A DNA stretch of 41,705 bases from Parasteatoda tepidariorum (GCF_043381705.1 NC_092214.1:2654579-2696283); one strand, 5' to 3'; shown: positions 1,089 through 40,469, counted from the stretch's first letter. The notes: generated by a model not told the origin, from the letters alone. Translations and numbers: made by a program.

Positions 1089-1382
1089 GTATGTTCTAAC
1101 TGATTATATTTTTCGTTTGTCAGAAATAATATGAAAGCAATTTTAAATTTAGCAATGTTTCAATGTAATTTATTAACAATTTTAAACTACCTATTTTAGA
1201 CATTTATATCTTGATGCAAAAATGTGTTGCTGTACACATTTAAAGCATTCACTTCTCCATAGATTAGTTTGCCTCTGAAAAATCAATCAATCATATAATT
1301 AGCAATTAAGCTTGCCTAAATATTTCTAAGAAATATTAGTATCCTAGTTGCAACAGATTTAAAAAAAAGTCTAAATTAAATA

Positions 1383-1415
1383 CACTATCTAGCCATTAAT
1401 GACCGGACACCCCTT
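1383..1415. repeat. Left terminal inverted repeat of the Tc1 element.
   Basis: Pairs as a reverse complement with 2580-2612 at 32 of 33 positions. Confidence 0.85.
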
Positions 1416-1424
1416 GAGCGGCAG

Positions 1425-2549
1425 GTGGACTCGTCCTGGCGGAATAAATACGGAACCTGTGGTGGGGGAAAGACCATTCGCAAGCAGGCGACGGCCATAC
1501 GAGCCTTAACAGTGAAGATGAGTGGACGGCAAGAGCTGAATGAGGCGGGAAGGGGCATAATCATAGGCGCCCACCTATTTGATCATTCCATACATGCCAT
1601 CTCCGACAAGTTTCAGTTACCACGGTCAACAGTTGGTGACGTCGTGTTGAAATGGGAACGAGAGGGAGTGATAAAACCGCAGTCCCGACCCGGCATGCCC
1701 AAAATAATGTCCGACAGGGATCGACGATCTCTTCGACGTGTAGTGAAGGCAAACCGACAAATGTCGTTGGACACTGTCGCTACCAACCTCCGGGCTGCAT
1801 CTGGCAATGTAGCCAGTACACGTACCATTCATCGGGAGCTGATTGCACAAGGATTCCATGGACGAGCAGCAGCACATAAGCCAAACATCTCTCCATCGAA
1901 CGCCCTCCACCGATTTCAGTGGTGCAGAGCACGTCGCCAGTGGACAGTAGAGCAATGGAAAAGCGTTATGTGGAGTGATGAGTCACGCTACATGTTGTGG
2001 CACTCTGATGGACGGGTGTGGACCTGGCGAATGCCCGGAGAATGGTACCTACTGGAGTGCATTGTCCCCACTGTGAGGTTCGGCGGTGGAGGAATTATGG
2101 TGTGGTCCTGTTTCTCATGGTTTGGCCTTGGACCCTTGGTGTTGGTGCGTGGAACCCTGAAGGTAGAAGGGTATAGAGACATCCTGTATAATTCGGCGCT
2201 TCCCACCCTGTGGCAACAGTTCGGTAATGGCCCGTTTGTGTTTCAACACTATAACGCTGCCATTCATAAAGCACATGCCATCACGGACTGGTTTGATGAA
2301 ATGGGGGTGCAAGAGCTTGACTGGCCATCCCAAAGTCCCGACATCAATCCAATTGAGCATCTCTGGGATGAGTTGGAGCGCCGGTTGAGGGCCAGACCAC
2401 AACGCCCCAAAACCACCACTCAACTCTTCGCCATGTTACAGGAGGAATGGCGGGCAATACCTGCCGCCGTGTACCAACACCTAGTGGATAGCCTTCCTAG
2501 AAGGGTTAAAGCTGTGATTCGGGCGCGTGGCGGCCCTACGCCCTACTGA
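1425..2549 (+). CDS. Tc1-like DD34E-family transposase. The biological start is probably the internal Met near 1518 ([19 protein letters not shown]...), which gives ~344 aa. The ORF is intact, but the second catalytic Asp is replaced by Tyr (FQHYNAAIH).
   Basis: Shows the paired-like HTH N-terminus ([30 protein letters not shown]), the first catalytic D in WSDESRY, and E in [16 protein letters not shown]. The middle motif reads FQHYNAAIH instead of the canonical FQHDNxPxH. There are no internal stops. Confidence 0.85.
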
Positions 2550-2579
2550 CTTGATACTAGCACCTCATGTATCCGAAAT

Positions 2580-2612
2580 GAGGGGTGTCCGGTCATTAAT
2601 GGGTAGATAGTG
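2580..2612. repeat. Right terminal inverted repeat of the Tc1 element.
   Basis: ggggtgtccggtcattaatgggtagatagtg is the reverse complement of the left TIR with a single mismatch. Confidence 0.85.
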
Positions 2613-3544
2613 TAGTTTTCTCTTGAAAAGATAGTCAGACTGATCACTGAAACATCTAAAACTTGTTTTTTCAGTAATTCAGAATCGTTTTAAAACTCTG
2701 GCATAAATTAAAGCTATAACATTGAAAACTTTATCTATTACTTACCCTAGGTCAAAAAGAAATTGATATTTAAAGAAATGAAACTATCTAGTAAGCACAC
2801 CATATTTTCCATTAAATAAATTTTTAAGAAATCAAATGATGCGAAACAAGTTGTAATAAAAAATTTTGGAAGAGAACTAATTCATCTTTCATTTCAAGTG
2901 TGTTGCATTTATGCAAAAATACTCTATAATTATGCATTGTCATTTAAGAAAAATATTTGTCATTCATTTGAGAAAGATCAGAGTAGATAGAAAAATTTAC
3001 TTTTTACTTTAATTAGGAAAAATCTTAATAAATTGTGTAATTAATACTTTTCTATATTTAAGGTTTTAAATAGATATAGATGTATTTTCATATAAATTTC
3101 ATATTCAGATTTTTAATAGATTCTTGTATCTCCTAATTTTGAAAAAGAAATTGGGGAAGGGTCAGTCAAAGCACAGTTTACTAAAAAATGTTTTTTTTTT
3201 AAATTATTTTTCCGTTAATCTAAAAATCATCCTAAAAAAATAAGACTTCAAAAAAAAAACACTGCGAAATTCATGATGGAAAAATAATTCTAGAAAAGTT
3301 AGTTTAAGCATGTTATGTTTCAACATACAGGAATCACCATTGTTTTTAATATTTTAGGAACTAATAAAAAATGTGAAAATTAAGCATCAAAAAACATCTT
3401 ATCCATTTCTATCTCTTTTTGTGTTAAATTTGGCATCTGCAAATGCCATTTAGATTCCATAGTACTCAGAGCAACAGCATTGTGATTTTCAAATTCAAAA
3501 TAAACTTTATATCATCAAACCTTATGTGGATCCTTCACCCATAT

Positions 3545-3700
3545 TGCGCCTGCATAATATAGATGTAAAACTTAATCGTCTCAGAACTGGCCACACTCGA
3601 CTCTCCCATCTTCATCTGTTGTTCGGAGAATCTCCTCCCTAATGTAACACTTGTAACATTTTACTTACTGTTCATCACATTTTAACCATTAGTCCTTGTT
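3545..3700 (+). pseudogene. 3' terminal fragment of a non-LTR (jockey/CR1-like) retrotransposon ORF2. It carries the C-terminal RLRTGH...HLH...C..C...H..H.L..CP cysteine/histidine motif and is interrupted by a stop.
   Basis: Translates to LNRLRTGHTRLSHLHLLFGESPP*CNTCNILLTVHHILTISPCF. This is the conserved tail motif of arthropod jockey-like reverse transcriptases, recognised from memory. Confidence 0.45.
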
Positions 3701-5450: not shown

Positions 5451-5642
5451 CAAGGGAGAGTCTATAAATTCCACATTTGGTTGTCTACATTCATGTAGGT
5501 GTTCGCAGGAGAGGAAATATTTTTTAGAGGTTGGCAGCACTAATAAAAACATACAGCCACCTGGAATTCATTCCCGGTTATGCCGGCATTAGCTGCAAAT
5601 GATTTCTGACGTAGCGAATTTTTTTATTTATTAGACTTTGAA

Positions 5643-5831
5643 ATGTTGTCTTTAGAGCAGTATGCAAACATCAAATTTTGTGTTTTTCTCGAGAAATTAC
5701 CTTCTGAGATGCTGATGAAAGCATACGGAAATGATGCCATGAAAAAAACGGCTGTGTACCAGGAGCATAAGCGTTTTTATGAAGGGCACGCAAGCATCAG
5801 AGATAACCCTCGCATCTTCCACCGCAGATGA
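5643..5831 (+). pseudogene. N-terminal HTH fragment of a mariner transposase (LEQYANIKFCVFLEKLPSEMLMKAYGNDAMKKTAVYQEHKRFYEGHASIRDNPR).
   Basis: Matches the canonical mariner N-terminus (EQRANIKFC...ML..AYG..A.....V..W..RF..G). Confidence 0.75.
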
Positions 5832-5968
5832 GAATGGGTGATCAAAAACTGCCTATTCTAAACATTCCACTGCGTGTTCGAAAAATCGTGTATGTGGATG
5901 AATGAATAACCATTGATGCTATTGTCTTTAAACATCGAATTTTACATAAGAGGTTCACAACATTCTGC

Positions 5969-6322
5969 ATGATGATTTTAACATGCATTGTTTTTGTTTG
6001 CACATGGTTCCTTTTGCACGACAATATTCCACCACATTGCACTCTGATTGTGAACAAGATACACCTTATGAGACACTGTTATACCACTCTGGAACACCCT
6101 CCTTATTCTCCTGACCTTGAACCAATGGATTTTTATCTGTTCTCACAACTGAAAATGAAATTGAAGGTAAACTATTTTGTGAATTACGATGAAGTAATCG
6201 AAAATACAATGAAGCAAGTGAAGGACCACTCAAAAAATGGATTCAAGGAATGTTTTCAACAGTTATACAGACGTTGGAAGAAGTGTGTAGATACAGGAAG
6301 AAAATACTTTGAAGGTCAATAA
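5969..6322 (+). pseudogene. C-terminal fragment of a mariner transposase, carrying the 2nd and 3rd catalytic D (HDNIPPH ... PPYSPDLEPMDFYLF).
   Basis: HDNxxPH and PYSPDLxPxDFxLF are DD34D mariner signatures. The region joining this fragment to the N-terminal fragment has been deleted. Confidence 0.8.
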
Positions 6323-6432: not shown

Positions 6433-6563
6433 TTATATCAAAGTAATTTAAACTTTTAATATGAATAAAGTCATTATACTCAAATAAACGTCCATATAAG
6501 AAGCGGATGAAAATGAAAGCATATATAATATAAAAATGCAAAAAAGAAAGCAATATTAGGAAA

Positions 6564-9185
6564 ATGTATAGACAAATATTAATTAATTCTCCAGATCAAA
6601 GTTATCAAAGAATTGTTGAGAGAAATAATTATAATTCAAAAATAAAAGTGTATAAATTGTGTACTGTAACTTATGGTACTTCTTCGGCATCATTTTTAGC
6701 TACTAGATATTTGCATCAAATTGCTATTGATAATAGAAACAAAAATCCTAGTTGTATTTGTTCTATTAATTGTAAGCAAATAATCGAACAAATTTCTGCC
6801 AACAAAAATGAATCATTTGTTACAGACATTTCTGCAGATGATTCTTCCAAAATATTAGATCTTCAATGGGGTTTGAATTTTGATAATTTATTATTAAGGT
6901 TAAATTTAATATTGAATCTTCCTTCACCAAGCAAAATATTCTTTCTCACTCAAAACGTTTATTTGATTCATTGGAATTATTATCTCCTTGTACGTTTCTA
7001 ATTAAGATTTTTTATTAAAAAATGTGGCTTGAAAAACTTAATTTGGATGATAATTTACCTTCTAAATTACATCAAAAGCGGATTAAATTGTAGGAAGAAT
7101 TTATTTGTACACAGATTAAAATACCTAGTTTATTACGTATTTATCGTGATGATATTGACTTACATGAGCTTAGTGATTCATCTAAGTCTGCATATGCAGC
7201 TGTAGCGTTATTACTGGCAAAAGGATAAAAATAATTGAAATAATTGTATAAATGTAAACTTAGTGCGTTCTGAAACAAAGGTAGCTCCAATTAAATAAAT
7301 TTCATTCCCAAGATTAGAACTTAAAGGCGCATTATTACATGTGAGACTTATTAAATTAATTTTAAATATTTTTTGTTAAACATAATTTCAAAGTGTTTGC
7401 TTGGTGTCACTCAAAGGCTCTATTGACATGGCTTGCTTCCCATCCTCATGGATGGAACACTTTTGTAGGTAATTGTATTAGTGAAATATTAATGCTGTAT
7501 GTCATATCTTATGACAAATATCATAGTGTTAAGTCTACAGATAATCTAGCAGATAGGTGGCTAAATCTCATATCATTATCAATTTTGATTTGTGGTGGGC
7601 TAAACCTTCATGGCTAAAAGAAAACCAAAACGATTTGCTTTTGAACATTGTTAAATCTAATGATTCTGAGGAATGGTCTAAGCAATCATTGTCTTCTCCA
7701 GCCAGTATTAGTTATGATATAATTCAGTATATATTTGAAATTGATTCTTCGTTAAGCAAAATTGTTTGTATTTTATCTTATTGCATGAAATTTATTCATC
7801 ATGTAGAAATAAGCTTGGGAAAGAAAAAATTGGTTCCTGTGTCAGATAATACAAAGATGAGTATTCCTTTATCTTTAAAGGAAGAAAATGTTGTTTTCAT
7901 TTATATTTTATCTTATGAGCAGAAAAAATTGCTTGCTTATGAGTTGAAATATTAAAAAAGATAAGCTATTAAATAAAAGGTTCTTTAAGTTCATTGTTAC
8001 CTTTCACTGATGATGAAGGTATCTTGTCAGTAGGAGGACGTTTTCAAAACTCTCCTTTTAAATATGATTAGCATCCAATAATTTTACCTCATCAGCATAA
8101 ATTTAGTATATTGGCAAAACAATTTCATGTTTCAACTGTCTTACCAAACATTATTCGCCAGTCTTTTGGATTAATGTTTGTAGAAAACTAATGCTAAGTA
8201 ATATTCATAAATACTTATATGTTGTAGATATAGAGCTTATTCCCAACAAATTATGGGAAATCTTCCGACAAATCGAGTTAAATTGAATAGAGTATTTCTA
8301 GTTTGTGGTGTGGACTATGCTGGTCCAATTTATCTGAAAACTCTAAAAAAAAAGACGCACAAAATTAATTAACAGTTATATTTTGCTTAGTTTGAATACA
8401 TTTCCACTAAAGCTGTTCATATTGAGACTGTTAGTGATCTTTCAACAAATGCATTTATTGCTGTTTTTCTTTTTTCATCACGTTGAGGTGCTCCTAAGCA
8501 TATTTACAGTGATAATGCTACGAATTTTGTAGGTGCAAAATTTAAACTGTCTGAAATGGGTAGAATTGCCATTGAGATAAATATCGATAAAAATTAATCT
8601 TATTTCCTCAATCAAAATTCAATTAAGTGGCATATGGTAGCGCCTGCTTCTCCCTATTATGGCGGTGCCTGGGATAAAATCAGTTAAATTTCATTTGCAT
8701 TGAGTTCTAGGTGATGCATCTTTAATATTTGAGGAATTAAGTACTTTATTAACTTGAATTGAAGCAGTTTTAAATTCGAAACCTCTTACTCCAGTTAGTG
8801 ATAATGATATAAATAATTTAGATGAATCAACTCTTTCTCATTTCTTATTAGGGAAAATAATATCATCTCCCCCTGAAAAATTAGATTTGGACGATATGAG
8901 TTATCATACATGCTGGGAACTTATTCAAAAATTAAAAAACTGGTTTTGGAAGCAATGGCATACAAAATATTTAAATTAATTTCGGTAGCAAAACATATGG
9001 GAAAACAGACAATATTTTTCTATTAGTAATATAGTACTGCTGAGAGAAGACAATCTTCCACCTGCTACTTGACCTGTAGGCAGAATTATTGGAGTATATT
9101 CAGGAAAAGATGATATTGTTCGAGTTGTTACAGTGAAAACTGCAAAAAGACTTTGCAAGCGATTAATAGTTAAATTAAGTTACCA
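6564..9185 (+). pseudogene. Decayed pol region of a BEL/Pao-family LTR retrotransposon, running from RT/RNase H to the integrase C-terminus. It is broken by many stops and frameshifts. No LTRs were identified.
   Basis: Conceptual translation across three frames gives VTYGTSSASFLATRYLHQ, HELSDSSKSAYAAVALL, WKTFV-like HPHGWNTFVGNCISEI and HPIILPHQHKFS. It also gives the integrase core VCGVDYAGPIYLK ... TKAVHIETVSDLSTNAFIAVF ... GAPKHIYSDNATNFVGA, then WHMVAPASPYYGGAWDK and the C-terminal DIVRVVTVKTAKRLCKRLIVKLSYQ*. These are recognised BEL/Pao pol motifs. Confidence 0.7.
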
Positions 9186-10143: not shown

Positions 10144-10450
10144 CATACTACTACTCTATTTGTGACCCTGATAATAATGCGAAATTTACAACTCGTTCTG
10201 GCTATGCATTTAGAGGATTACTTTCTCATTTATTCAATGGAAGGTGTACTCCAGAACTTGCTTCTTTGTTGTGTAATCTTCAATTTCTAGAAGCTTGTTT
10301 TTATGTGGATTGTGGCGAAATTCTTCAGGAGTATTATCTAAACATTTTAGAAGAAAAACAGAGAGGGAGGCGAGATACAAAAGAAATAGATTTTGACGTA
10401 TTAGAATCTTACAAAAATTTTGTTTGTCGTAATCTGCATATTTTAAACAG
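10144..10450 (+). CDS. Host gene exon of 307 bp reading ...YYYSICDPDNNAKFTTRSGYAFRGLLSHLFNGRCTPELASLLCNLQFLEACFYVDCGEILQEYYLNILEEKQRGRRDTKEIDFDVLESYKNFVCRNLHILNR.
   Basis: A long pyrimidine tract plus AG at 10142-10143, and a perfect donor CAG|GTAAGT at 10451. The ~100-codon open frame is of non-repetitive composition. Confidence 0.5.
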
Positions 10451-12207
10451 GTAAGTTTATAATTATATATTTTAAGGCTAATTAATTAATTACTAGGCAT
10501 TATTTAAATTTAAACAATAATAAACCATTTACTATTATTAATTATATATTTCAGACACATTATTAACATTTAAATGAAATTATTTTAATTTTACTAATAT
10601 TTTTAACAGGATTACTAATTTTCTGATGTAATCTTTTCAATATGAAAAGGAGCTTTATTTTTTATGTTTTTTCTCTTTATTTTTTAAAAATATTTTAATT
10701 TTTAAGAAAGTGTATTTATAACTTCTGGTGATTATGTGGAAAGTTAATGTGTGCGAGCTATTAACACTTAAATCAATTTTTTTCTAGCCAACCACAGCAG
10801 AGACTTTATTTACAGTATTATGTCATCTCAAAATCCGTTCATTATTATTGTTTGTTTTCAATCATTATTTTGTAACTAATTTTATGTAAAGAGCATGGAA
10901 AAGTACACATATTTAAAATTTAATTTATTTGCCACATTATAAAAGTACAATATATATATAATTTAATTTTCTAAGCTGTATTCAGCTTCGCACAATAATG
11001 TTTAATATCTGTGTCTCTCAGACTTGATTGCAATGAATTAATATGCGTGTAATACAATACACAGAGATGACACAAAGTTAGACTGGTGGGTAAAACTTTT
11101 TCCTTTATATAAAGCAATAAATTAGATAAAAAAAATTCTAACAATAGTAACAAAACACCAGTAGGTAAATTTTAATAGTAGAAAAATATGACGAAATTGT
11201 AATTCAACATTTTCTTCCCAAGTTCTAGGTAAAATAAGTGATTCTGTTGATATCTTTTCTTCTCCCTGGTTGTTCAGATAACATTAATTCATTGCCAAAA
11301 TATAACTTATTATAATAAACATGGAAAGATCACTTAAATACTTGAGTTTACAAATCTCAAAAGAAAAAAACAAACAATTCCAAACAATGTGTAACAACTA
11401 GTTGACTTTTTAAATCGAAAGTTACTACATGGCATTTTTGTAACTTTGAAAAAAAAGTTTGATGAAATTCCAAACCACTAACCATGTGACAAATCACAAT
11501 TGAAAACGGACAACAATATGCATTTTAATAAAATATGGCAGCAGTATATAAGTTTATAAAATCTCTAAAATATTATTAATTGTAATGTTATAAAAATAAA
11601 TCAAAGTAGGAAGAAAGATAGTCTGAAGCAGTAAATAGAAGCTTGTTTGGAAATAGAAGACATCTGACTGTTCCTGATTGTTTGTAAAGTCATTCTACCT
11701 GTAGAACTTGAAAATTGTGGATATTTTGAGGCCCTCGATGCCTCAGGTATACAAACAGACCTATTACGTTCTGGTAAATAATTAACTAATAATTAGTAAA
11801 TTCTAGTAAATGATTAGTTAGCTAATAAATAATTTTTTTAATTAACCTTTTAAATACAAAGTTACTTTAGTTAAAACTAAAATGTTTGCAAGTTTATTAC
11901 AAACTAAGTCATTATTTAACTAAGTAACAAGCAATCTTAGTTAATTCCTGAGTTAGATATTTGGTTACCTAGCAATTTGTTGTTTCTTTGTAACTAAAAT
12001 AAAGCTATTAAGTAAATGGGTATTTTACTTATTAATTTTTAAATTAGTAACTAAAAAACTAACTAACTTTAAAAATCACTGATTACTGAATAAGCAGTAT
12101 TGAAATTTAAGTATTCAAGTAACTATTCGTTTTTTATTTATTTTTAGACTGCAGTTGCTTTTATATTGTTGTTATTTTGTGAATACACGCATATAGGTAT
12201 AGATATG

Positions 12208-13113
12208 CAGGGTGTTTATAAAGTCCCGAACCCATTTTGATGTTTAATAACTCATAAAATAATAAAGATAGATTAAAATTAATAACATAAATGGTTAGAT
12301 AGACTCAAAAAGTTTCATGACCCTTGTCAATGAACTTCCACGTGTGCCCCCTTCATCACAAGGAGAATATCAAGTCGATAGTCAATTTCATGCCAGGTAG
12401 CGGCAAGCATGTCGGCATCCACAGAGGCTATTGCTGTTGTAATTATGGCTTTTAGGTCATCAATGTTCAACACGATCCTCCTGTAAACATTGTCCTTTAT
12501 AAATCCCCAAAGAAAAAGTTCAGCGGCTTTATATCAGGTGATCTGGATGGCCAAGAAATTGGACCTCCTCGCCTACAGAAAAGACGGTCTCATCAGTCAT
12601 ACACTTAGACACGGTGGAAAACTTCGTTTTTCCACAACTAGAAGAGCTTCAGCCACATGTCTTTTTGCAACAAGATAGTGCACCATCTCATTGGGGTATC
12701 ATCGTTCGTAGTTCTTTGGATGACCATTTTCTAGGAAGATGGATTGGGCGAGGAGGTCCAATTCCTTGGCCACCCAGATCACCTGATATAACGCCGCTGG
12801 ACTTTTTTCTTTGGGGATTTATAAAGGACAATGTTTACAGGAGGATCGTGTCGCACATTGATGACCTAAAAACCAGAATTACAACCGCAATAGCCTCTGT
12901 GGATGCCGACATGCTTGCCGCTACCTGGCGTGAAATTGACTATCAACTTGATATTCTCCATGCGATGAAGGGGGCACACGTGGAAGTTCATTGACAAGGG
13001 TCATGAAACTTTTTGAGTCTATCTAACCATTTATGTTATTAATTTTAATCTATCTTTATTATTTTATGAGTTATTAAACATCAAAATGGGTCCGGGACTT
13101 TATACACACCCTG
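12208..13113 (+). mobile_element. Foldback (near-palindromic) derivative of a mariner/Tc1-superfamily element. Two inverted arms of ~390 bp each (12208-~12600 and ~12710-13113) are built from the 3' end of the transposase gene plus the TIR. Only a ~100-bp unique centre separates them.
   Basis: Terminal 30 bp cagggtgtttataaagtcccgaaccc pairs with the reverse complement of gggtccgggactttatacacaccctg. Internal arm segments (e.g. 12393-12421 against 12900-12928, and 12478-12573 against 12749-12845) are reverse complements at roughly 90-95% identity. Confidence 0.75.
12614..12994 (+). pseudogene. C-terminal transposase fragment of the foldback element (Tc1/mariner superfamily), containing the 2nd and 3rd catalytic-region motifs.
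   Basis: Reads FLQQDSAPSHW ... GRGGPIPWPPRSPDITPLDFFLWGFIKDNVY. The QQDxAPxH and PPRSPDxTPLDFFLWG motifs resemble those of insect mariner-like transposases, from memory. The N-terminal two thirds of the gene are absent. Confidence 0.7.
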
Positions 13114-14778
13114 TATATTTAATAAATCAAATAAGAATTCAAAGCTACAATCAAAAGAAAAAATAGCTGCTAAATCACCAATTTCTTTGAGGTACTAATC
13201 TGGGTTATCAAATTAGAAGTTAAAATGGGTTAAGTATCAATATAAAATTTTCCATTCTAATTATTTTGTTTTAAGTACCTTTTAGCACTATCAGTTTTTC
13301 AATGAAATTTAACTTATACATCCTTTAAATGAAAATATTCTACTAAACTTACTTACATATACTGTACTATGCGTAGTAAATCTCAAACTTGTATATGGTT
13401 TAATAGAGTAAAAAAATTAAATCTAATTTGTTCATTATTTTCATTTTCTATCGATATGTACTACTAGAAGGAGTTATTTCCTCATTTGTGTTCTGATCAA
13501 TGGTCTTACGAAATCTTAGGCATAAATGCATGAAAAAAAGATAGCTCTTCAGACTTTATATACTTACCAATTTAATCATTATCTCAAAGTCACATATTTT
13601 TCAAAAATATAATAGTATAAAAAATAAAAAACAAAAATAAATATAATTGTTAGTTTAATTTTAAATAATTCCATAGTGAAAATCCCTGTAGTGTTTTCTG
13701 TTAAAGTTATCTCTATAATACTCATACAAAACAAATTGTGGGCTAATTGATGAGACTGTAGTGGAAAATGTAGCTGTGGGAAACAAATTACAGGGTAACC
13801 AAAAAAATAATGGAGGTGTTAGTGATTGTGCAAATTTTTGCTTTTTAATTCAAGTTTTTTTACTATCAGAATGTTTGCTTTCTTAGTTTTATATAAGACA
13901 GTTTTACGTTTTGAAAAGAAACCATGTACATTCTAACTTTAGATTTCTCAGGCCATATACATTCTAATTTTTTATTTTGAGATATTGCATTGAAAATATA
14001 ATGAATAATAACGATGAAAAGAATACAACTGACATATAAAATTTTTTTTCAGTTTTATCAGTCTTTAGAAAAAATTCATTTAATAACTGAATACCCTATT
14101 GGGAATAATCTAACAAAATGCATTTCTCCATTTTATAATTCTTGATAAAATAAAAAAAAAATGAGCTGACAATATTTTTTAGTTTTCAAAAATTTCTGGG
14201 AGATTAAAAAAACTGGGTAGAACAATCGCATTCACCAAACATTTATTGAAAAGAAAGTGAATTTATGTCTGAAATTTTGGTGATACATGACTTGAAAGTC
14301 GGTAGTCATAATGATAAGTTTTTTGCTGTTTGTATATTTTATCAAGAACTTTTATAGTTTTGGCTATTTTTATAGTTTTTTTTAATTTTCTGTATTTTTT
14401 ATCACAATTCCTTTAACTTATCTCTCTCTTTTATGAAAAATCTGAAAATTAATCTAACATTAGTGTTAAAATCAACTTTGTGGCTTTTAGTGAGATTCTA
14501 ATGAATTTTGTGTCATAGATTGAAAAGTAGTTTTAACATGTTAATTTCTAAACATCTTTAAAAAAATATTTATTAATTCTGCAGTTTAATCTGAAATTAT
14601 TACATCTTTCGAAACATAACATTATTGATTTAAATAGAGTTTTAAATTGTGTAAATATGCTTTTGTTTATAAGAATTATAATTAAATATTATTTATATTA
14701 TCAGAATTTCTGCACAAATATTTAACCCAATATCTTCTGTTATATTTGCTTATGAACTAGTTTGCTTTATTATTTCAG

Positions 14779-16488: not shown

Positions 16489-16585
16489 CCTATTACTGCA
16501 GTTTCTTATGAAGAGTCGAGAAGAATCGCTGTTTTAGGAAGTAAAGATGGATATCTGAAAATACTTGATTACTCATCTAAAAGAG
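16489..16585 (+). CDS. Host gene exon (PITAVSYEESRRIAVLGSKDGYLKILDYSSKR), a WD40-like blade segment.
   Basis: Acceptor ccatttcAG at 16487-16488 and donor AAGAG|GTAATA at 16586. The ...AVLGSKDGYLKILD sequence is a WD40-repeat signature. Confidence 0.55.
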
Positions 16586-17637: not shown

Positions 17638-18435
17638 TCAATAGCACTTTCGATAGCTTTTAATCCATCTGTATGTGAAAATATATCGATTTTCATCCTC
17701 ACTGTCTTCATCACTAGATTCCTTTTCCTTATTCACAGTATTGATGATCATTTCATCCGTAATTTCTTGTTGTTCGTCAGCATTTATCCAGTCACGTATA
17801 TCCTCTTCGTTTATTGGCTCAGCTAGTGGCAGTTTAATGACTAAATCCAAAAGCTCATCACTACATTCATTGGACTTTCCGTGATGTTCTGTACTCTGTG
17901 TATCAATAATTTTCCTCAACAACTTTTTTATGGTGTCTGATTTTACTTCATCCCATGCCTCAGCTATCCAGTAGACAGCATCCTTTACATTTAAACTTTT
18001 AATTGTCTCAGGAACACTTTTATTTTCCTCAATTCCTTCAATAAGAAATTTTAGTAATTTCTTTCGATAATTTCTCTTCATGTTCTCCAAAACACCTTGA
18101 TCTAAAGGCTGAATAAGTGATGTGACATTGGGCGGCAAAAAAAGAACTTTAATGTTGCCACTCGCCAATTCATCATCATTCGGATGACATGGAGCATTGT
18201 CAAGCATTAATATTGCTTTCCTTGGAAGATTTTGATTTTTTAAGAATGTCTCTACGTTAGGAACGAATTCATCAAAAAACCATTTTTTGAGCAAATCCGC
18301 ATCCATCCAAGAACTTTTTTGATTTTTGTAATACACTGGTAAACTTGGAATATGAATGTTCTTAAATGCTCTAGGTTTTTTCGACTTGCCAATCAACATT
18401 ATCTTAGTTTTAGGTTTCCAGATGCATTCAAACAT
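17638..18435 (-). pseudogene. pogo/Tigger DDE_1 catalytic domain and C-terminal tail (265 aa), which ends in an acidic stretch.
   Basis: Reads LDNAPCHPNDDELASGNIKVLFLPPNVTSLIQPLDQGVLENMKRNYRKKLL, the hallmark DDE_1 motif of pogo/Tigger/CENP-B-like proteins. This frame overlaps the upstream ORF 18399-18587, which indicates a frameshift. Confidence 0.8.
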
Positions 18436-18540
18436 GCTAATATTGTTACCCTTTCTTTACTTATCTTGTACCCCGGAGCTGACCTTTCATTCTTTGCCGC
18501 AAGAGTTTTTGAAGGCAACATTCTAAAGTTAAGTCCTGTT

Positions 18541-18831
18541 TCATCGCAATTGAAAAGTTTCTCCATTTTCAGATTTTTTTTTTGCAATGAGATTTTTAAA
18601 ACTTTCTTTGAATTTAATCACCTCCTCACAGTCAACTGATAATTTTTCTCCCGATATATTTAATTGACGAATTCCATATCTCTTTTTCCAACAATCCAAC
18701 CATCCACTTCTAGCAGTGAAATCTTCTCCAGCATAAAGAAGTTTATTAAAGTCCAATGCTTTTGCTTGTAGCATAAGCCCTGATATGGGACTTCCCTTTT
18801 CTCTCAATTTCGGATGTTTTTTCAAATTCAC
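18541..18831 (-). pseudogene. pogo transposase second HTH (HTH_Tnp_Tc5 / CENP-B-like) segment. It is in a different frame from the neighbouring pieces.
   Basis: Reads FTARSGWLDCWKKRYGIRQLNISGEKLSVD, matching the conserved F.AS.GWL..FK.RHGI motif of pogo/Tigger transposases. Confidence 0.7.
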
Positions 18832-18877
18832 ACTTTTTCATTATTTTTCGTAAACTGCAATTAGCCTTTTCTGCACT

Positions 18878-19144
18878 TCATATTTCTATTTCATTTCTCT
18901 TCCTTTTCCAGTCGCCAACAGTAACAGCTCCTACTCCGAGAACTCTCGCTACTTTCCTTATTGATTCACCTTTATCTAATCTTTGAATTGCTTCTAATTT
19001 TGTTTCTAAAGAAGCAACAACTCGCTTTCTCTTTTTGCTACTCATTTCGAATCTGTAGAATTGACTGAATGTAGCCACTGTACTTTTTCCCGCAAAACAA
19101 TTTCCCGATTCCAGGGAGGGAATCATGTGACCAGTCGAAACCAT
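18878..19144 (-). pseudogene. pogo transposase N-terminal psq/CENP-B-type HTH segment (MSSKKRKRVVASLETKLEAIQRLDKGESIRKVARVLGVGAVTVGDWKRKRNEIE).
   Basis: Shows the classic CENPB-N/psq helix-turn-helix pattern (K.R..L....K...I...E.G.S...VA...GV...TV..W.K.R). Confidence 0.75.
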
Positions 19145-21995
19145 TTGGTAGTAAGGGGGGATGGGTCATTTGACTAGACAACGAAAACAATTCAGCATAC
19201 TCTCTTTCGTTTCATGCTTCTCTTTTTGAACCCTGAAACTGAGAAGAAGACCAGCCCTCATAGGCCCCCATGTAAACCTGTTCCGGAGGCAACGGTTACC
19301 TCCATCAAGGTGGGGAAGTATTGCTAGGAAAACAACCTGCCTCCTTACAGAGGGTCCCTCCGTCCTTACCCCGTAAGCAACCCCATTCCTCTCCGCTAAT
19401 GTAAACAGATAATAAAAAGTGACTCAAACCCCGTCTGCTTTTGTTCTTTACAGACTTCTATGGTTTTGAAAAAGGTTTGCTTATTAAGCAAGGAAAATAT
19501 TCACTTGTGACGAATTCATTAAAAGATAAATATAATTTATTATTTTAACTTAGGTGTATAATTTAAACAGATATCCGTCACTTAAAGATGTCACTTTAAA
19601 GATGGCGAAAAATTTGTTGTTAAACAAGTTTAGAGACGCTATGATGGATGAAAGATCTGCGCATGCGTCAGCTCAAAAAACCTTGGTGCGTTTCTTGTCA
19701 TACAGAGTGACATTGCTGGCCCTTGCTACGTATAGGAGAAGCTAGCTGAGTGTCGCAATATTCTTCTTTCAAAAGATGGGGAGGGGTGGAGCGGTGCGTG
19801 ATACAATGCAAAGTAAGCGGAGTAGTGCTGATGGATTTTGTTTTCCTGAGTGTTTGTGAGATCAAGTTCAGAATTTTTTTCGGTAGTTTAAAAAAGTAGG
19901 AAATGTAGAAGCAAAGCCAAAAAAAAAACTTACAGATATTTGACAGCTTGGTTAAAGTGGAGACTCGGATAATCGGGGCTCGGATAACCGGGGTTTTACT
20001 GTTACTGTTTTTCTTATACTTGGAGGAAAACTAATTTTAAATTAACTCTAACAAAAATTAATTTTCTTGTTCTCAGAGGAAAATTAATTAATTTTAAAGT
20101 ACCTTTAAAAAGTTTCAAAGAGAAATATAACAAATTTTTTTAATATCTGAAATTACTTGTTAATAATTTTTTTTTTACTAGTTATGTATTTTTTTTCAGA
20201 ATCGACAATTAAAATTATGAGTTAATGCAAATTTAAATAAATGTAAGCTCAAATTTCCTAATATATCATTATTTATTTATGCGATGAATAATCATAAAGC
20301 CTTTTGTAAATGAAACAATAAGTAAATATTTTTTTTAAAGTTTCAAACCATTGGAGATTTCCAAAAATTGGGCCTACTATTTTTAATGCTGTCTTATGTA
20401 TAGCCTTTTTGTTAAAAGAAATGTTCTTGTTATGTTCACAAAGAATACCTGAATCTCTGACATAAACCTCATTGTAACTTATGATATCATTACTTAATCT
20501 TAGATGAATTGATTATGCAGTTTGTTAGGCAAAACAGGAATCCAACTTATGTGATAAACTATTTTATTGGTGAATCACAGCGTTTCTTAAATTATAACTA
20601 ATAAAAAATTTTAATAAGAGAAATTCAGTCTCCGAAAAAAACACATTAGAATTAATTGTGGCTAAAAGTTTTTAAACAATTGTTGTTCTGGAAATATTAA
20701 TCTTAACCTTGCTATAAGTATTAAAATTATGTTTTTTAGCCGTTCTTATGACGCCTACTTAAAATATTTTAATAAACTTATGTCAAAAGTAGTCTTATAC
20801 ATTATTGGCAATCAAAATGGGCTACAGGTGGCATAGAGCAGAATTCTCTACCTATGGCAACCCTTAGTATGCTTTCACCATTAGCGTGTGGAGAGTCATA
20901 TGAGAAAAAAACGTGTTAGTTTCTGTCTTGATTTTCAAATAGGTTAAAAACTTTTAAGTTAGGAACTATATGGAACTGAAAACTACATTCAACATGGATC
21001 TAAAATGAAAACATGGAAATTTTAAAAAAATAATTTTGACAGGTAAAAACGAAAAACATTAGGAAACGGAAAAATATCGTAGTACATTTCTATACAACTG
21101 AAAAGAGAAGGAAAGGGAAGGGGAGGATCAATACATGGAACCAGTCTTCTCCCCAGATAGCTTATTCAAGCATTGCGATCGTGAATATTTTACTATAAAT
21201 TTGTGTATTCAACTCTTATATAAAACAAATGTAACTCATTTTTCTCACAAATTATAATATATCTTCAAATTTGATGTAAATTTAATGCAAAGTAATGTTT
21301 TAATTTCTTTCTGTTTTTTTTAATATCTGTTGCACTGTTTTGTATTGGATAGAGAATCAATTTTAAATGCTATATTTTTAACTATATTGGTAAATGCATG
21401 AAACTTAATCGTTTGATTTCTTTACTTACAAGTTATATAAAAACCAGACACTGTATTTAAGGGGAAAATTATAGACAATAAATTAGCAGCATTTATTTGT
21501 TATTAATGGCATTAATTTTTTGTTTGTTTGTTTTATACTCTCACAGTAATTTCTTTAGTGTAATTTGCTATAATATGGATCAGAAAGCATAATAATAATT
21601 CATAAAAATCTATATAATGTATAGATTTGTTTTGAAATTGTTGCATGATTGAAATGAAAATGCTAGGCCATGCTTGACATCTTAATATTTAATTTCTTTG
21701 TTTATTTCTTGTTGTTAGTCATATTACTCTCAATTGTAATTACCTTTTCATGTCTGTTTTATTCCTTACTGTATAACGTGTATCTGGCTTATAAATCTAT
21801 TTATCTTAATTTTCTACGAAAAAAATATATCTTATTAGAATGTGAAATTTGGTGTTTTCCTTTTACTTTGACAACTTGGTTTCAAATTTTAAAGTTAGTT
21901 TAATATTGTTTTTATCTGTGTGACAAGATAATCAATATTTCCTAAAAATATTTTTCATTCATCATTATACTATTTTAAATAATGTTTGTATTTAG

Positions 21996-22120
21996 GTCAT
22001 ACGAAATCTCAAAAGCCACACATCAGCCATAACATTTGTTTGTTTTGGTGGAAAAAGTAGAATCTGCACAGCCTCAAATGATACAACCTTAAATATTTGG
22101 AGTAGTGAAGATTACAGTTT
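21996..22120 (+). CDS. Host gene exon encoding a WD40 repeat (VIRNLKSHTSAITFVCFGGKSRICTASNDTTLNIWSSEDYS).
   Basis: Acceptor tgtatttAG at 21994-21995 and donor TTT|GTATGT at 22121. The SH...I......G..I.T.S.D.T..IW pattern is a WD40 repeat. Confidence 0.55.
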
Positions 22121-29767: not shown

Positions 29768-29914
29768 AATTTCTGTGTTGAAGGGTCACAGGCAAAGTGT
29801 TACTTGTTGCTGTGCTGATCCAACAGGAGGAGTGTTACTGTCTTCCAGTTGGGACAATACTGTTCGCCTGTGGAGTTTACTTGATGGGAGATCAATATCC
29901 ACCATTGATTTTAG
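29768..29914 (+). CDS. Host gene exon encoding a WD40 repeat (ISVLKGHRQSVTCCCADPTGGVLLSSSWDNTVRLWSLLDGRSISTIDFR).
   Basis: Acceptor catatttcAG at 29766-29767 and donor TTAG|GTTTGT at 29915. GH..V.......G..L.S.S.D.TVRLW is the textbook WD40 signature. Confidence 0.65.
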
Positions 29915-34851: not shown

Positions 34852-36098
34852 CAGTGGTACCTCGAGATACGAGTGCCCTAACATACGAGTTATTTGAGAT
34901 ACGAGCTGTCGAGCAAGCAAAGTTTTGCTTTGAGATATGAGGAACGGCCATGCAAGCCCTTCTCGTCCTCGGCAATGCTCCTGCTCACCCACCAAGTCTC
35001 GAACAGGACATCCTCGAAGATTTCACGTTTATAAAGTCACGTATATACCACCTAACACCATTCCTATCCTGCAGCTCATGGATCAGCAGGTGATTTCTAA
35101 TTTTAAAAAGCTGTACAGTAAGCACCTGTTCTGGCACTGCTTTGAGGTGACAGAGAACACAAACCTCACCCTTCAAGAGTACTGGAAGGACGACTTTAAC
35201 ATCGTGATGTGCCTCAAAATTATTGATCAGGCCTGGCTGAGTGTTACAACGAGGACCTTGACCTATGCATGGAAAAAGCTGTGGTCTGTAGCTGAAAATT
35301 GTGCTGTCGCCTGAGTCTGTAGCTTCGAAGGATTCGAACCCGAAGTGCCAGTGGAGGTGGAAATAGTGTCTCTTGGAAAATCCATGAACCTGGTGATGGG
35401 TGAGAGAGATGTGAACGAGCTCGCCGAGGAACACTCTCAGGAACTGACGACCAAGGAATTACAAGAGTTACAGTCGCAGCAGCATTCAGGGGTTCTGCAA
35501 GAAATTGGTTTCGAGGAAGAGGTGGAGGAGGTTATCTCTACAAGTGAGATAAAAGAGTTCTTGGGAATGTGGGAGAGAATTTCACTGTTCGTGGAAAAGG
35601 AACACCCCGAAAAAGTTGCAACTGGTCGTACATCGGAGCTATTCAATGACACTTGCCTAACTCATTTCTGCAGCATTCTAAAAAGGAGGGGAAAAAAACC
35701 TCCTTCGACAGTTTTTTTTTATCCGGCTAAAAAAGCAAAAACCAGTGAAGAGAAAAGCAGTCACTAAAATTAAGCATACAGTAGCATTTAAGTTGTGTGT
35801 AAGTTGCATTTAAGTGACCAAAATACAAATATGTATGTACACTTTGTAAAACCAGTTTTTTTTTTTTTGCTTTAAATTTTCTTTTATTATGCTTTTATAC
35901 AATATTTGTCATTTATAAATACATTTTTCTTATCCAAAAACACGTAACAAAAACAATTGGGGGTAGCATTTTTTGGGCTGGAACGGATTAATGGCATTTC
36001 TATTAATTTCAATTGGGAAAATTACTTTGAGATATGAGCAAATTGACATACGAGCTAGGTTACGGAAGGAATTAAACTCGTATCTCGAGGTATCACTG
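34852..36098 (+). mobile_element. Internally deleted Tigger/pogo-family element (~1.25 kb) with 23-bp TIRs (cagtggtacctcgagatacgagt, and cagtgatacctcgagatacgagt as reverse complement). A TA follows the 3' end.
   Basis: The TIRs match at 22 of 23 positions. Internally, the + strand ORFs 34937-35314 and 35345-35767 encode the distal part of a DDE_1 domain (IPPNTIPILQLMDQQVISNFKKLYSKH) and a Tigger-type acidic C-terminal region. Confidence 0.75.
34937..35767 (+). pseudogene. C-terminal third of a Tigger/pogo DDE_1 transposase, in two frames.
   Basis: PPNT.S.LQPMDQGVI..FK..Y-like motif, followed by a Glu-rich tail (EEVEEVISTSEIKEFL). The N-terminal HTH and first catalytic residues are absent. 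Confidence 0.7.
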
Positions 36099-36432: not shown

Positions 36433-36542
36433 GATGCCCAGTGAATTGTATTGATCATCACCCATATAAGCAACAAGTTACTTGTGGTTTGTGGAACAGC
36501 TGCATTGAAGTGTGGGATACAGTTAGTCTAAAGAAAGTATTT
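36433..36542 (+). CDS. Host gene exon encoding a WD40 repeat segment (CPVNCIDHHPYKQQVTCGLWNSCIEVWDTVSLKKVF).
   Basis: Acceptor gaaattttcAG at 36431-36432 and donor TT|GTAAGT at 36543. IEVWD is a WD-repeat terminus. Confidence 0.55.
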
Positions 36543-40349: not shown

Positions 40350-40469
40350 ACTGCTAAAAGTCATTGTGGCTCTGTTAAATCAATAGTTTATTCTTCTGAT
40401 GGTGTTAACATAATCTCTTCTTTTATTAATTCTGACATTGTCATTTGGTCTGCAGAAGAAGGGTTAAAG
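40350..40469 (+). CDS. Host gene exon encoding a WD40 repeat (TAKSHCGSVKSIVYSSDGVNIISSFINSDIVIWSAEEGLK).
   Basis: Acceptor tgtcttctAG at 40348-40349 and a perfect donor AAAG|GTAAGT at 40470. The H...V..I..S.DG..I.S...D..I.IW pattern is WD40. Confidence 0.6.

Follow-up and report, generated by a model that had tools for sequence, protein, structure and literature searches.

A 906-bp foldback derivative of a DD41D Tc1/mariner-superfamily transposon in the Parasteatoda tepidariorum genome

Results

An inverted duplication of a transposon 3′ end

A 41,705-nucleotide stretch of Parasteatoda tepidariorum DNA (GCF_043381705.1 NC_092214.1:2654579-2696283; the whole stretch is termed the window, and positions are counted from its first nucleotide) carries a foldback element of 906 bp at positions 12208 to 13113. 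The element begins CAGGGTG, ends CACCCTG and lies among candidate exons of a host gene and the remnants of other transposons. Gapped self-alignment identified a single inverted pair, 12208-12573 against 13113-12747, with 95.6% identity over 367 columns (15 substitutions and one 1-nt indel; E ~1e-170). An ungapped repeat search recovered the same pair, broken in two at the indel. An initial annotation, made from the sequence alone, had described a foldback assembled from the 3′ portion of a transposase gene and its terminal inverted repeat (TIR), present once in sense and once in antisense. Self-alignment and mapping to intact copies bore this description out, and its boundaries of 12208 and 13113 proved exact. 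The long inverted homology that it predicted for a self-comparison, as opposed to merely short terminal repeats, was likewise observed. Its geometry of two inverted arms about a centre was also correct; the proposed sizes (arms of ~390 bp, centre of ~100 bp) were not, the arms measuring 366 bp (left) and 367 bp (right) with a loop of 173 bp between them. Gapped self-comparison revealed no further copies or fragments of the element within the window, and Tandem Repeats Finder detected no tandem repeats in 12100-13250.

In agreement with the hairpin anticipated by the initial annotation, the predicted RNA fold of the element is one long hairpin with a free energy of -669 kcal/mol, against -223 ± 10 kcal/mol in shuffled sequences (z = -43). 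The DNA fold is similarly a single long hairpin (-423 kcal/mol against -92 ± 6 kcal/mol in shuffles, z = -54). The coordinates of the element and of the surrounding host exon candidates are collected in Table 1.

Table 1. Features of the foldback element and candidate exons of the host gene. Positions refer to the window; a slash within a sequence marks a boundary.
Feature	Position	Strand	Remarks
Left target-site dinucleotide	12206-12207		TG where TA is expected, most simply a point mutation of TA; complete family copies are all TA-flanked on both sides
Left arm	12208-12573	-	Inverted parent 729-1093: transposase C-terminal codons, stop, 3′ untranslated region (UTR), 3′ TIR
Left TIR (~63 bp)	12208-12270		Begins CAGGGTGTTTATAAAGTCCCG; 91-94% match to parent 5′ and 3′ TIRs alike
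Left-arm open frame remnant	12330-12533	-	68 codons (...LFLWGFIKDNVYRRIVLNIDDLK...GAHVEVH); upstream end broken by a 1-nt deletion
Rearrangement junction	12573/12574		...GGACCTCCTCGCC/TACAGAAAAGACGG...; blunt
Unpaired centre (173 bp)	12574-12746	+	Parent 556-728; unbroken transposase coding sequence including the second catalytic Asp (FLQQD)
Right arm	12747-13113	+	Sense parent 729-1093: third catalytic Asp (TPLD), stop at 12992-12994, 3′ UTR, 3′ TIR
Right TIR (~63 bp)	13051-13113		Ends ...GGGACTTTATACACACCCTG
Right target-site dinucleotide	13114-13115		TA
Host exon candidate, APAF-1 helical-domain-like	10144-10450	+	Polypyrimidine-TTTTAG acceptor, CAG/GTAAGT donor
First downstream host exon candidate, WD40 blade	16489-16584	+	
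Further WD40-blade exon candidates	21996-22120, 29768-29914, 36434-36542, 40350-40469	+	

The right arm reads ...WPPRSPDITPLDFFLWGFIKDNVY...GAHVEVH and a stop codon in + frame 2; coding sequence for this peptide, interrupted by one frameshift, also lies on the - strand of the left arm. The centre is an upstream extension of the right-arm frame (TEKTVSSVIHLDTVENFVFPQLEELQPHVFLQQDSAPSHW...). Indeed, an open frame of 150 codons and a stop (12542-12994, + frame 2; ...PTEKTVSSVIHLDTVENFVFPQLEELQPHVFLQQDSAPSHWGIIVRSSLDDHFLGRWIGRGGPIPWPPRSPDITPLDFFLWGFIKDNVY...GAHVEVH) runs unbroken from the centre into the right arm, its homology to transposases starting at 12574 (TEKTVSS...). The layout is thus that of one long 3′ transposon fragment (12574-13113) whose last 366 bp recur, inverted, directly before it; far from being a neutral spacer, the centre is transposase coding sequence. 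The open frame keeps the second and third catalytic aspartates; since the first catalytic aspartate and the DNA-binding domain are gone, it cannot encode an active transposase. Furthermore, each of the four coding changes specific to the right arm is non-synonymous, and a frameshift interrupts the left arm, so the reading frame shows no trace of selection. No Pfam family was found in the 132-aa peptide of arm and centre, and the family was assigned through homologues.

The parent is a DD41D element

A search with the element peptide returned 514 homologues from a large protein collection. The best of these (76-86% identity) were all Stegodyphus mimosarum entries annotated as 'hypothetical protein, partial', followed by Araneus ventricosus and many unnamed sequences from ENA and JGI. 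The genomic copies retrieved for four S. mimosarum proteins (here L001, L004, L016 and L018) are ~1.09-1.13 kb long or shorter deletion derivatives, and share 90-93% DNA identity with the window element; the left arm, when reversed, matches their 3′ ends at 89-92%. Their TIRs of 63-70 bp begin CAGGGTGTTTATAAAGTCCC, and the ends read TA/CAGGG...CCCTG/TA in an AAATA/.../TATTT context. TA is present on both sides of all four copies and at the 3′ ends of L002, L003 and L017, three metagenomic copies described below. Within the parent, the 5′ and 3′ TIRs hardly differ from each other. In the ~1.1-kb Stegodyphus form, a 217-aa open reading frame (ORF) starts just ahead of the first catalytic Asp, and this common form is hence already non-autonomous, being without the DNA-binding domain. 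As judged from these alignments, the immediate parent of the window element is a ~1.1-kb non-autonomous element of the Tc1/mariner superfamily that is abundant in S. mimosarum.

Full-length relatives of 347-351 aa were recovered in an exhaustive profile-free search, the best (P0121) with 57% identity. P0121, P0124 and P0125 bear an N-terminal DUF4817, HTH_32 or HTH_Tnp_Tc3_2 domain, and the full-length relatives also contain DDE_3. The Pfam match to DDE_3 reached the cut-off, and the parent protein P0001 aligned to the catalytic domain of the Sleeping Beauty transposase (SB100X; PDB 5cr4) with E 2e-5, pairing FSD-E, QQD-GAPPH and TPL-D at the three catalytic positions. Relative to this DD34E reference, P0001 has a 7-residue insertion before the last catalytic Asp. 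The spacing between the second and third catalytic aspartates is exactly 41 residues in the window ORF, P0001, P0121 and P0125, which identifies the parent as a DD41D element rather than mariner proper (DD34D). The term 'mariner-like' used in the initial annotation therefore holds for the Tc1/mariner (IS630-Tc1-mariner) superfamily, given the TA duplication, the DDE/D triad, the TIRs and the paired helix-turn-helix motifs of the full-length relatives, and fails for mariner sensu stricto, where 34 residues would separate the two aspartates.

DD41D transposases are known from rosa (TIRs of 28-32 bp), the LTIR/Lsra clade (TIRs of ~460 bp) and Visitor; the ~460-bp TIRs of the LTIR clade belong to DD40D/DD41D elements described as potentially autonomous (PMC5490172). 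In spacing and TIR start, the two features compared, the parent agrees with these groups: it combines the DD41D spacing and a final Asp with TA duplications and a TIR start of (C)AGGGTGT that resembles the aphid rosa element Apismar4.1 (AAGGGTGTCTC...; PMC5490172). The parent family differs in TIR length, which at 63-70 bp lies between the 28-32 bp of rosa and the ~460 bp of LTIR.

Two further observations concern the family at large. In the 1.1-kb Stegodyphus form, a direct repeat of ~50-70 bp (TTTGAATATCTTTACTTTTGTAAATATCGTCTGC...) lies in the non-coding sequence on the 5′ side (L001:3741-4000; L004:25400-25560). Some annotated proteins (e.g. P0010) have N-termini that are translations of this repeat; several database entries of this family are thus gene-model chimeras. 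Additionally, copies with 86-90% DNA identity to the spider family occur in Tara Oceans marine metagenomes (L005, L006 and L017, ERZ28654087, TARA_SAMEA2619918; L007, ERZ976227, PRJEB4352), and one soil metagenome contains such copies too. These could reflect contamination, other hosts or horizontal transfer.

The junction is blunt and lies at a possible breakpoint hotspot

Parent coordinates were defined on L004:25307-26399 (1 to 1093). Element positions 1-366 correspond to the reverse complement of parent 729-1093, and positions 367-906 to parent 556-1093. The last 538 bp of the parent (556-1093) have accordingly been kept, and its whole 5′ part swapped for an inverted copy of the last 365 bp (729-1093). 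Both termini are consequently 3′-end-type TIRs, each within 1 mismatch of the consensus. At TIR position ~56, where G versus A is the only consistent difference between the 5′ and 3′ TIRs of L001 and L004, the left arm has the 3′-type base A. The element is therefore a dead, non-autonomous 3′-3′ inverted-duplication derivative of a DD41D Tc1/mariner-superfamily transposon.

The 40-bp span across the junction reads ATTGGACCTCCTCGCC/TACAGAAAAGACGGTCTCATCAG, and the parental flanks are TTTTTTACAGAAAAGACGG on one side and GGACCTCCTCGCCCAATCC (reverse complement) on the other. No microhomology was found at 12573/12574 relative to the sampled parents. The breakpoint at parent 556 (window 12560-12585) falls in or beside the tract CTTTCTTTTTTACAG/AAAAGACGG (T6ACAGA4), where two deletion derivatives also have independent breakpoints: L005 (330-345) at ~562 and L018 (2940-2975) at 564. 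In a simulation with uniformly placed breakpoints, three of 12 clustered so tightly with a chance of ~3.6%, which is suggestive of a breakpoint hotspot at parent 556-564.

The same tract, also noted in L006:1-45, resembles a 3′ splice acceptor. We considered whether the L005 deletion (501/~562), which ends at the acceptor-like TTTTTTACAG, might represent a spliced-out intron and hence a retrocopy. Its boundaries are unlike GT...AG and carry an A-run microhomology instead, and this interpretation was discarded.

A second 3′-3′ inverted form occurs in the family

Another rearranged copy was found in two different samples: L002:1-826 (ENA ERZ27240726, contig k141_539347) and L003:1-498 (ERZ924899, soil metagenome PRJEB18701), each matching the window element's right arm at 95% identity. 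In parent coordinates its structure is the reverse complement of ...821 to 385 joined to 702-1093. The junction thus differs from that of the window element, and the arm boundary at 702 lies 27 bp from the window boundary at 729. L002 and L003 share 99.6% identity over 498 bp through the junction, followed by unrelated 3′ flanks; transposition of the rearranged form is the simplest account of this combination. By sequence, then, a second, independent 3′-3′ inverted derivative exists at at least two sites, and forms of this type arise repeatedly in the family and are probably mobile.

The initial annotation had proposed a search for the full-length parent and for other foldback copies. The search yielded the ~1.1-kb parent form, the full-length relatives at the protein level and the foldback type of L002/L003; no second copy with the 12573/12574 junction was found in the window, the retrieved loci, the JGI metagenomes or IMG/VR (the 22-nt junction sequence being the query for JGI metagenome contigs and IMG/VR), none of which is the host genome. 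A search of the JGI metagenomes and IMG/VR with 18 nt of the TIR gave eight loci, all of them chance matches with no extended similarity. The remaining sampled copies, namely L005-L007 and L017 from ENA and the four from Stegodyphus, are in ordinary orientation, several with internal deletions (L005, L016, L018). Nor did copies with odd predicted N-termini (P0005, P0018, P0034, P0036, P0016 and P0099) include further foldbacks, all being in ordinary orientation with internal deletions only.

These data bear on the possibility that the window element belongs to an amplified long-TIR (foldback) subfamily and transposed to its present site as a unit, making it a functional non-autonomous type and not a one-off scar. 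Such a history would fit its two intact TIRs, its precise ends abutting TA or TG in an AT-rich and partly palindromic site like those of other insertions, the existence of the L002/L003 derivative at two unrelated sites and that of DD41D relatives with ~460-bp TIRs (PMC5490172). The failure to find its junction elsewhere in the material searched points the other way, as does the incomplete left arm of L002, where the contig stops 121 nt into the arm. We judge this history possible and rather doubtful.

At the end of the L002 contig lies an exact inverted overlap of 121 nt, such as a de Bruijn assembler would be expected to leave on meeting a perfect inverted repeat. Long-read sequencing and multiple displacement amplification are known to generate foldback chimeras, and inverted repeats confuse assemblers. 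The window element might on these grounds be supposed to be a palindromic chimeric read or a collapse of two copies. A foldback artefact would, however, be a perfect palindrome, whereas the arms of the window element differ by 15 substitutions and one indel spread along their length; moreover, the junction is asymmetric, the 173-bp loop is unique, and the TIR ends and flanks are proper. Thus, the arms are separated by real substitutions, and we consider an artefactual origin extremely improbable.

Origin of the inverted duplication

Most likely, the inverted duplication arose in one step from one copy, when gap-repair or replication-repair synthesis switched strand. Gap repair that aborts, slips or switches template is accepted as the origin of defective copies of cut-and-paste elements (PMC4168063). 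Two routes can be envisaged. In the first, synthesis would enter the 5′ TIR and the nascent strand would pair with the near-identical, inverted 3′ TIR; copying would then proceed inward to 729, followed by a second, non-homologous jump to 556. The second route would begin with a break near parent 556, within T6ACAGA4, after which fold-back synthesis would be primed at 729. The L002/L003 derivative and the cluster of breakpoints argue for a process intrinsic to the family. With intact transposase-binding TIRs at both ends, the product could still be mobilised in trans.

The ungapped repeat search extended the arms to 12200-13121, and we considered whether the inverted repeat runs on into the flanks, as fold-back synthesis in situ past the element end would produce. 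Only 6/8 flanking bases match. The partial match reflects the family's preference for AT-rich, partly palindromic targets, and the candidate was rejected.

Several observations weigh against a one-step origin from a single copy. A junction devoid of microhomology is at least as compatible with end-joining as with templated switching. On the left, the target dinucleotide is TG where TA would be expected. When the 16 differences between the arms were polarised on five other copies, 11 were assigned to the left arm and 4 to the right, with 1 ambiguous, an asymmetric divergence. The identity between the arms (95.9%) is hardly above that between the right arm and L002 (95.1%), and only three states, including one in FIKDNVYRRIV, are common to both arms and found in no other compared copy. 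Origin of the arms from a single source is accordingly not demonstrated by their divergence as read from the alignments; the comparison copies are all from other genomes, so that these figures cannot decide between a one-copy and a two-copy ancestry. The lack of a second copy with the 12573/12574 junction, within the scope given above, also belongs here.

The same observations can be read in terms of two head-to-head (5′-to-5′) insertions and a later blunt deletion; with the two 5′ parts lost along with the host DNA separating them, the reverse complement of 729-1093 would be fused to 556-1093. The TG and TA dinucleotides would then stem from two insertion sites. The mutual similarity of the arms barely exceeds their similarity to a copy in a different genome, internal deletions are very common in the family (L005, L016, L018), and Tc1/mariner elements typically hop locally. 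This alternative is kept in contention by the blunt junction and by the asymmetry in arm divergence in particular. Conversely, two rare events would have to occur in a suitable geometry. In L002/L003 the same architecture arose independently, with other breakpoints, and was then mobile as a unit, suggesting a one-step, intrinsic process, and the arms share three derived substitutions absent from the five other copies, a weak point given that those copies come from other genomes. On balance we regard an origin by two insertions as unlikely.

We therefore favour the account in which a DD41D foldback derivative, formed in one step, persists as a decaying and probably intronic insert with passive effects only, and we consider this account as a whole likely.

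The element lies between candidate exons of a putative APAF-1-like gene

The window has a G+C content of ~27% and contains many transposon remnants. The five WD40 pieces of Table 1, when joined in genomic order, matched Pfam WD40 with E = 4e-21 and were collinear with whole-propeller models; the 29768-29914 piece by itself gave E = 3.5e-11. Polypyrimidine-AG acceptors and GT donors flank all six exon candidates, the donor site reading ...AG/GTAAGT in three. The six do not assemble into one uninterrupted frame, from which it follows that small exons are missing from the model. No homologues of the WD40 exon or of the APAF1_C-like exon were found in a collection of 5.8 billion proteins, and scans of the window for Rfam families and transfer RNAs gave no matches. 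None of nine ORFs taken from the window had an exact counterpart in the collection searched. Judged from the sequence, the host is probably a spider with affinity to Stegodyphus.

In APAF-1 the helical domain is placed ahead of the WD40 repeats, an order that fits the PF17908-like exon followed by the WD40 exons. The foldback element falls between the first two + strand exon candidates and is thus probably intronic in a + strand APAF-1-like WD40 gene, a reading to which the gene model lends moderate strength. One point counts against it: the 10144-10450 exon rests on its splice sites together with a PF17908 (APAF1_C) match of E 9e-4 to 3e-3 that falls short of the gathering score. The intronic position asserted by the initial annotation is therefore supported by the bracketing exon candidates and their canonical splice sites, with a marginal domain match upstream.

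The candidate gene has very long introns (5-8 kb), one WD40 blade per exon and canonical splice sites throughout. Within the element, a candidate cryptic 3′ splice acceptor, CCTCCTCGCCTACAG/AAAAG, is located on the + strand at 12578/12579 and is followed by ~138 open codons; it is possibly usable within the host intron.

Other repeats in the window

An apparently intact Tc1-like element occupies 1378-2617 (+), bounded by 37-bp inverted repeats (1378-1414 and 2581-2617). Its 343-aa ORF, read from the first ATG (1518-2549), contains HTH_Tnp_Tc3_2 and DDE_3 domains and DD34E-type motifs (DESR...NAAIH...SPDINPIE). At ~54% G+C in a background of ~27%, it would appear to be a recent arrival. A degraded mariner-type (DD34D-like) remnant at 5610-6322 (+) has the N-terminal sequence ...EQYANIKFCVFLEK... 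and the C-terminal sequence ...LHDNIPPH...HPPYSPDLEPMDFYLF..., with a weak match to Pfam DDE_3 (E 0.004). On the - strand, 17641-19165 holds a pogo/Tigger-like transposase remnant in three frames (CENP-B_N helix-turn-helix, E 3e-8; HTH_Tnp_Tc5, E 2e-10; DDE_1, E 2e-42). A second pogo/Tigger-like fragment lies at 34934-35764 (+), comprising the C-terminal part of DDE_1 (E 2e-8) and an acidic tail ORF, at 45-47% G+C richer than its surroundings. The region 6534-9000 (+) encodes ...IEAVLNSKPLTPVSDNDINNLD...FWKQWHTKYLN and matches DUF5641 weakly (E 0.025); we take these motifs to be the debris of a long terminal repeat (LTR) retrotransposon, BEL/Pao-like in type. A motif at 3463-3639 (...LNRLRTGHTRLSHL...) is, we presume, typical of non-LTR elements.

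Discussion

The closest analogue of the window element is Mu killer (Muk) of maize, a rearranged MuDR in which both termini derive from the same element end, part of the transposase gene is inverted, and transcription from outside can yield a long hairpin RNA (PMC3440606). The window element shares this structure, and its left arm carries the 3′-type base at the one diagnostic TIR position. The two differ in superfamily and in the part that is duplicated: Muk is a Mutator element with a duplicated 5′ part (~1.3 kb) that includes TIRA, whereas the window element is a Tc1/mariner element with 366 bp duplicated at its 3′ end. Furthermore, silencing by Muk is genetically proven, while the window element is known from its sequence alone, and plants silence through RNA-directed DNA methylation where an arachnid would use small interfering RNA (siRNA) or piRNA pathways.

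Composite Ac/Ds insertions of maize (p1-ww-id) offer a second parallel, being inverted duplications of fractured transposon fragments that result, as is presumed for the window element, from the aberrant activity or repair of the transposon. Transcription of inverted Ac duplications from flanking promoters gives double-stranded RNA (dsRNA) and siRNAs that silence Ac (bioRxiv 10.1101/2020.01.07.897926). The composites form by alternative transposition and re-replication of two nearby hAT elements and are far larger, whereas the breakpoints of the window element are internal and not at termini. Within the superfamily itself, transcription in Caenorhabditis elegans begins in the DNA that flanks Tc1, the inverted repeats of the read-through transcript fold back, and the dsRNA feeds germline RNA interference (reviewed in PMC3878927). 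The 54-bp TIRs of Tc1 provide dsRNA at the termini only; the stem of the window element, at 366 bp, would extend over transposase coding sequence.

In having very long inverted arms relative to its length, and a strong hairpin or cruciform potential, the element also resembles classical Foldback elements (Drosophila FB; Galileo). The arms of the latter consist of tandem subrepeats or evolved long TIRs, whereas those of the window element, from another superfamily, have no tandem repeats and were recently duplicated from transposase C-terminal coding sequence, 3′ UTR and TIR. A similar distinction applies to the LTIR clade, where the arms are the evolved TIRs of an autonomous element, in contrast to coding-derived duplicates in a non-coding relic. 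As in Tc1/mariner internal-deletion derivatives and miniature inverted-repeat transposable elements, the window element is non-autonomous and keeps both TIRs, and it exists alongside simple deletion derivatives of its family (L005, L016 and L018) whose breakpoints fall in the same tract. The presumed repair product is, however, an inverted duplication in place of a simple deletion. Miniature elements are usually under ~800 bp, non-coding and represented by many near-identical copies of one structure; at 906 bp with 366-bp arms the window element is slightly larger, and no second copy with the same junction occurred in the collections searched, the host genome not being among them.

The activities of the element are likely to be passive only, and its sequence is that of a decaying, non-coding insert. 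Host pre-mRNA that crosses the intron should, according to the fold predictions, form a 366-bp stem of transposase coding sequence, 3′ UTR and TIR. By analogy with the systems above, this stem is a potential substrate for Dicer or ADAR aimed at the transposase 3′ region of the family, and the DNA of the element is a potential site of cruciform formation or fork stalling.

Elements of this kind are already known, and an inverted-duplication derivative of a cut-and-paste transposon would not greatly surprise specialists. The added interest lies in its recurrence within the family, its apparent mobility, and the idea of a hairpin silencer, which is easy to check against RNA data of the host. Taken at its least, the locus is one more decaying rearrangement: a 0.9-kb near-palindrome in a host gene that can disrupt assembly, PCR and replication-fork progress.

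The first host recognition of DNA transposons for silencing is known mostly from a few plant cases (Mu killer, the Ac composites). An inverted duplication of transposase coding sequence in a transcribed arachnid intron would be a ready-made test case in animals, and independent derivatives of the same design in related genomes strengthen the case. A broader proposal, by analogy, is that 3′-3′ DD41D foldbacks recur at a hotspot, stay mobile and act, from introns of expressed genes, as 'killer' hairpins of transposase coding sequence that drive family-wide siRNA silencing in spiders, and that they offer a route to long-TIR lineages; we advance it as a speculation that is quite improbable in full. 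The locus is nonetheless a base-resolved example of a short-TIR Tc1/mariner element acquiring very long TIRs in what would be a single step. If the broader proposal is true, such foldbacks would be an animal Tc1/mariner counterpart of Mu killer, and the same process could give rise to the long-TIR lineages of DD41D elements.

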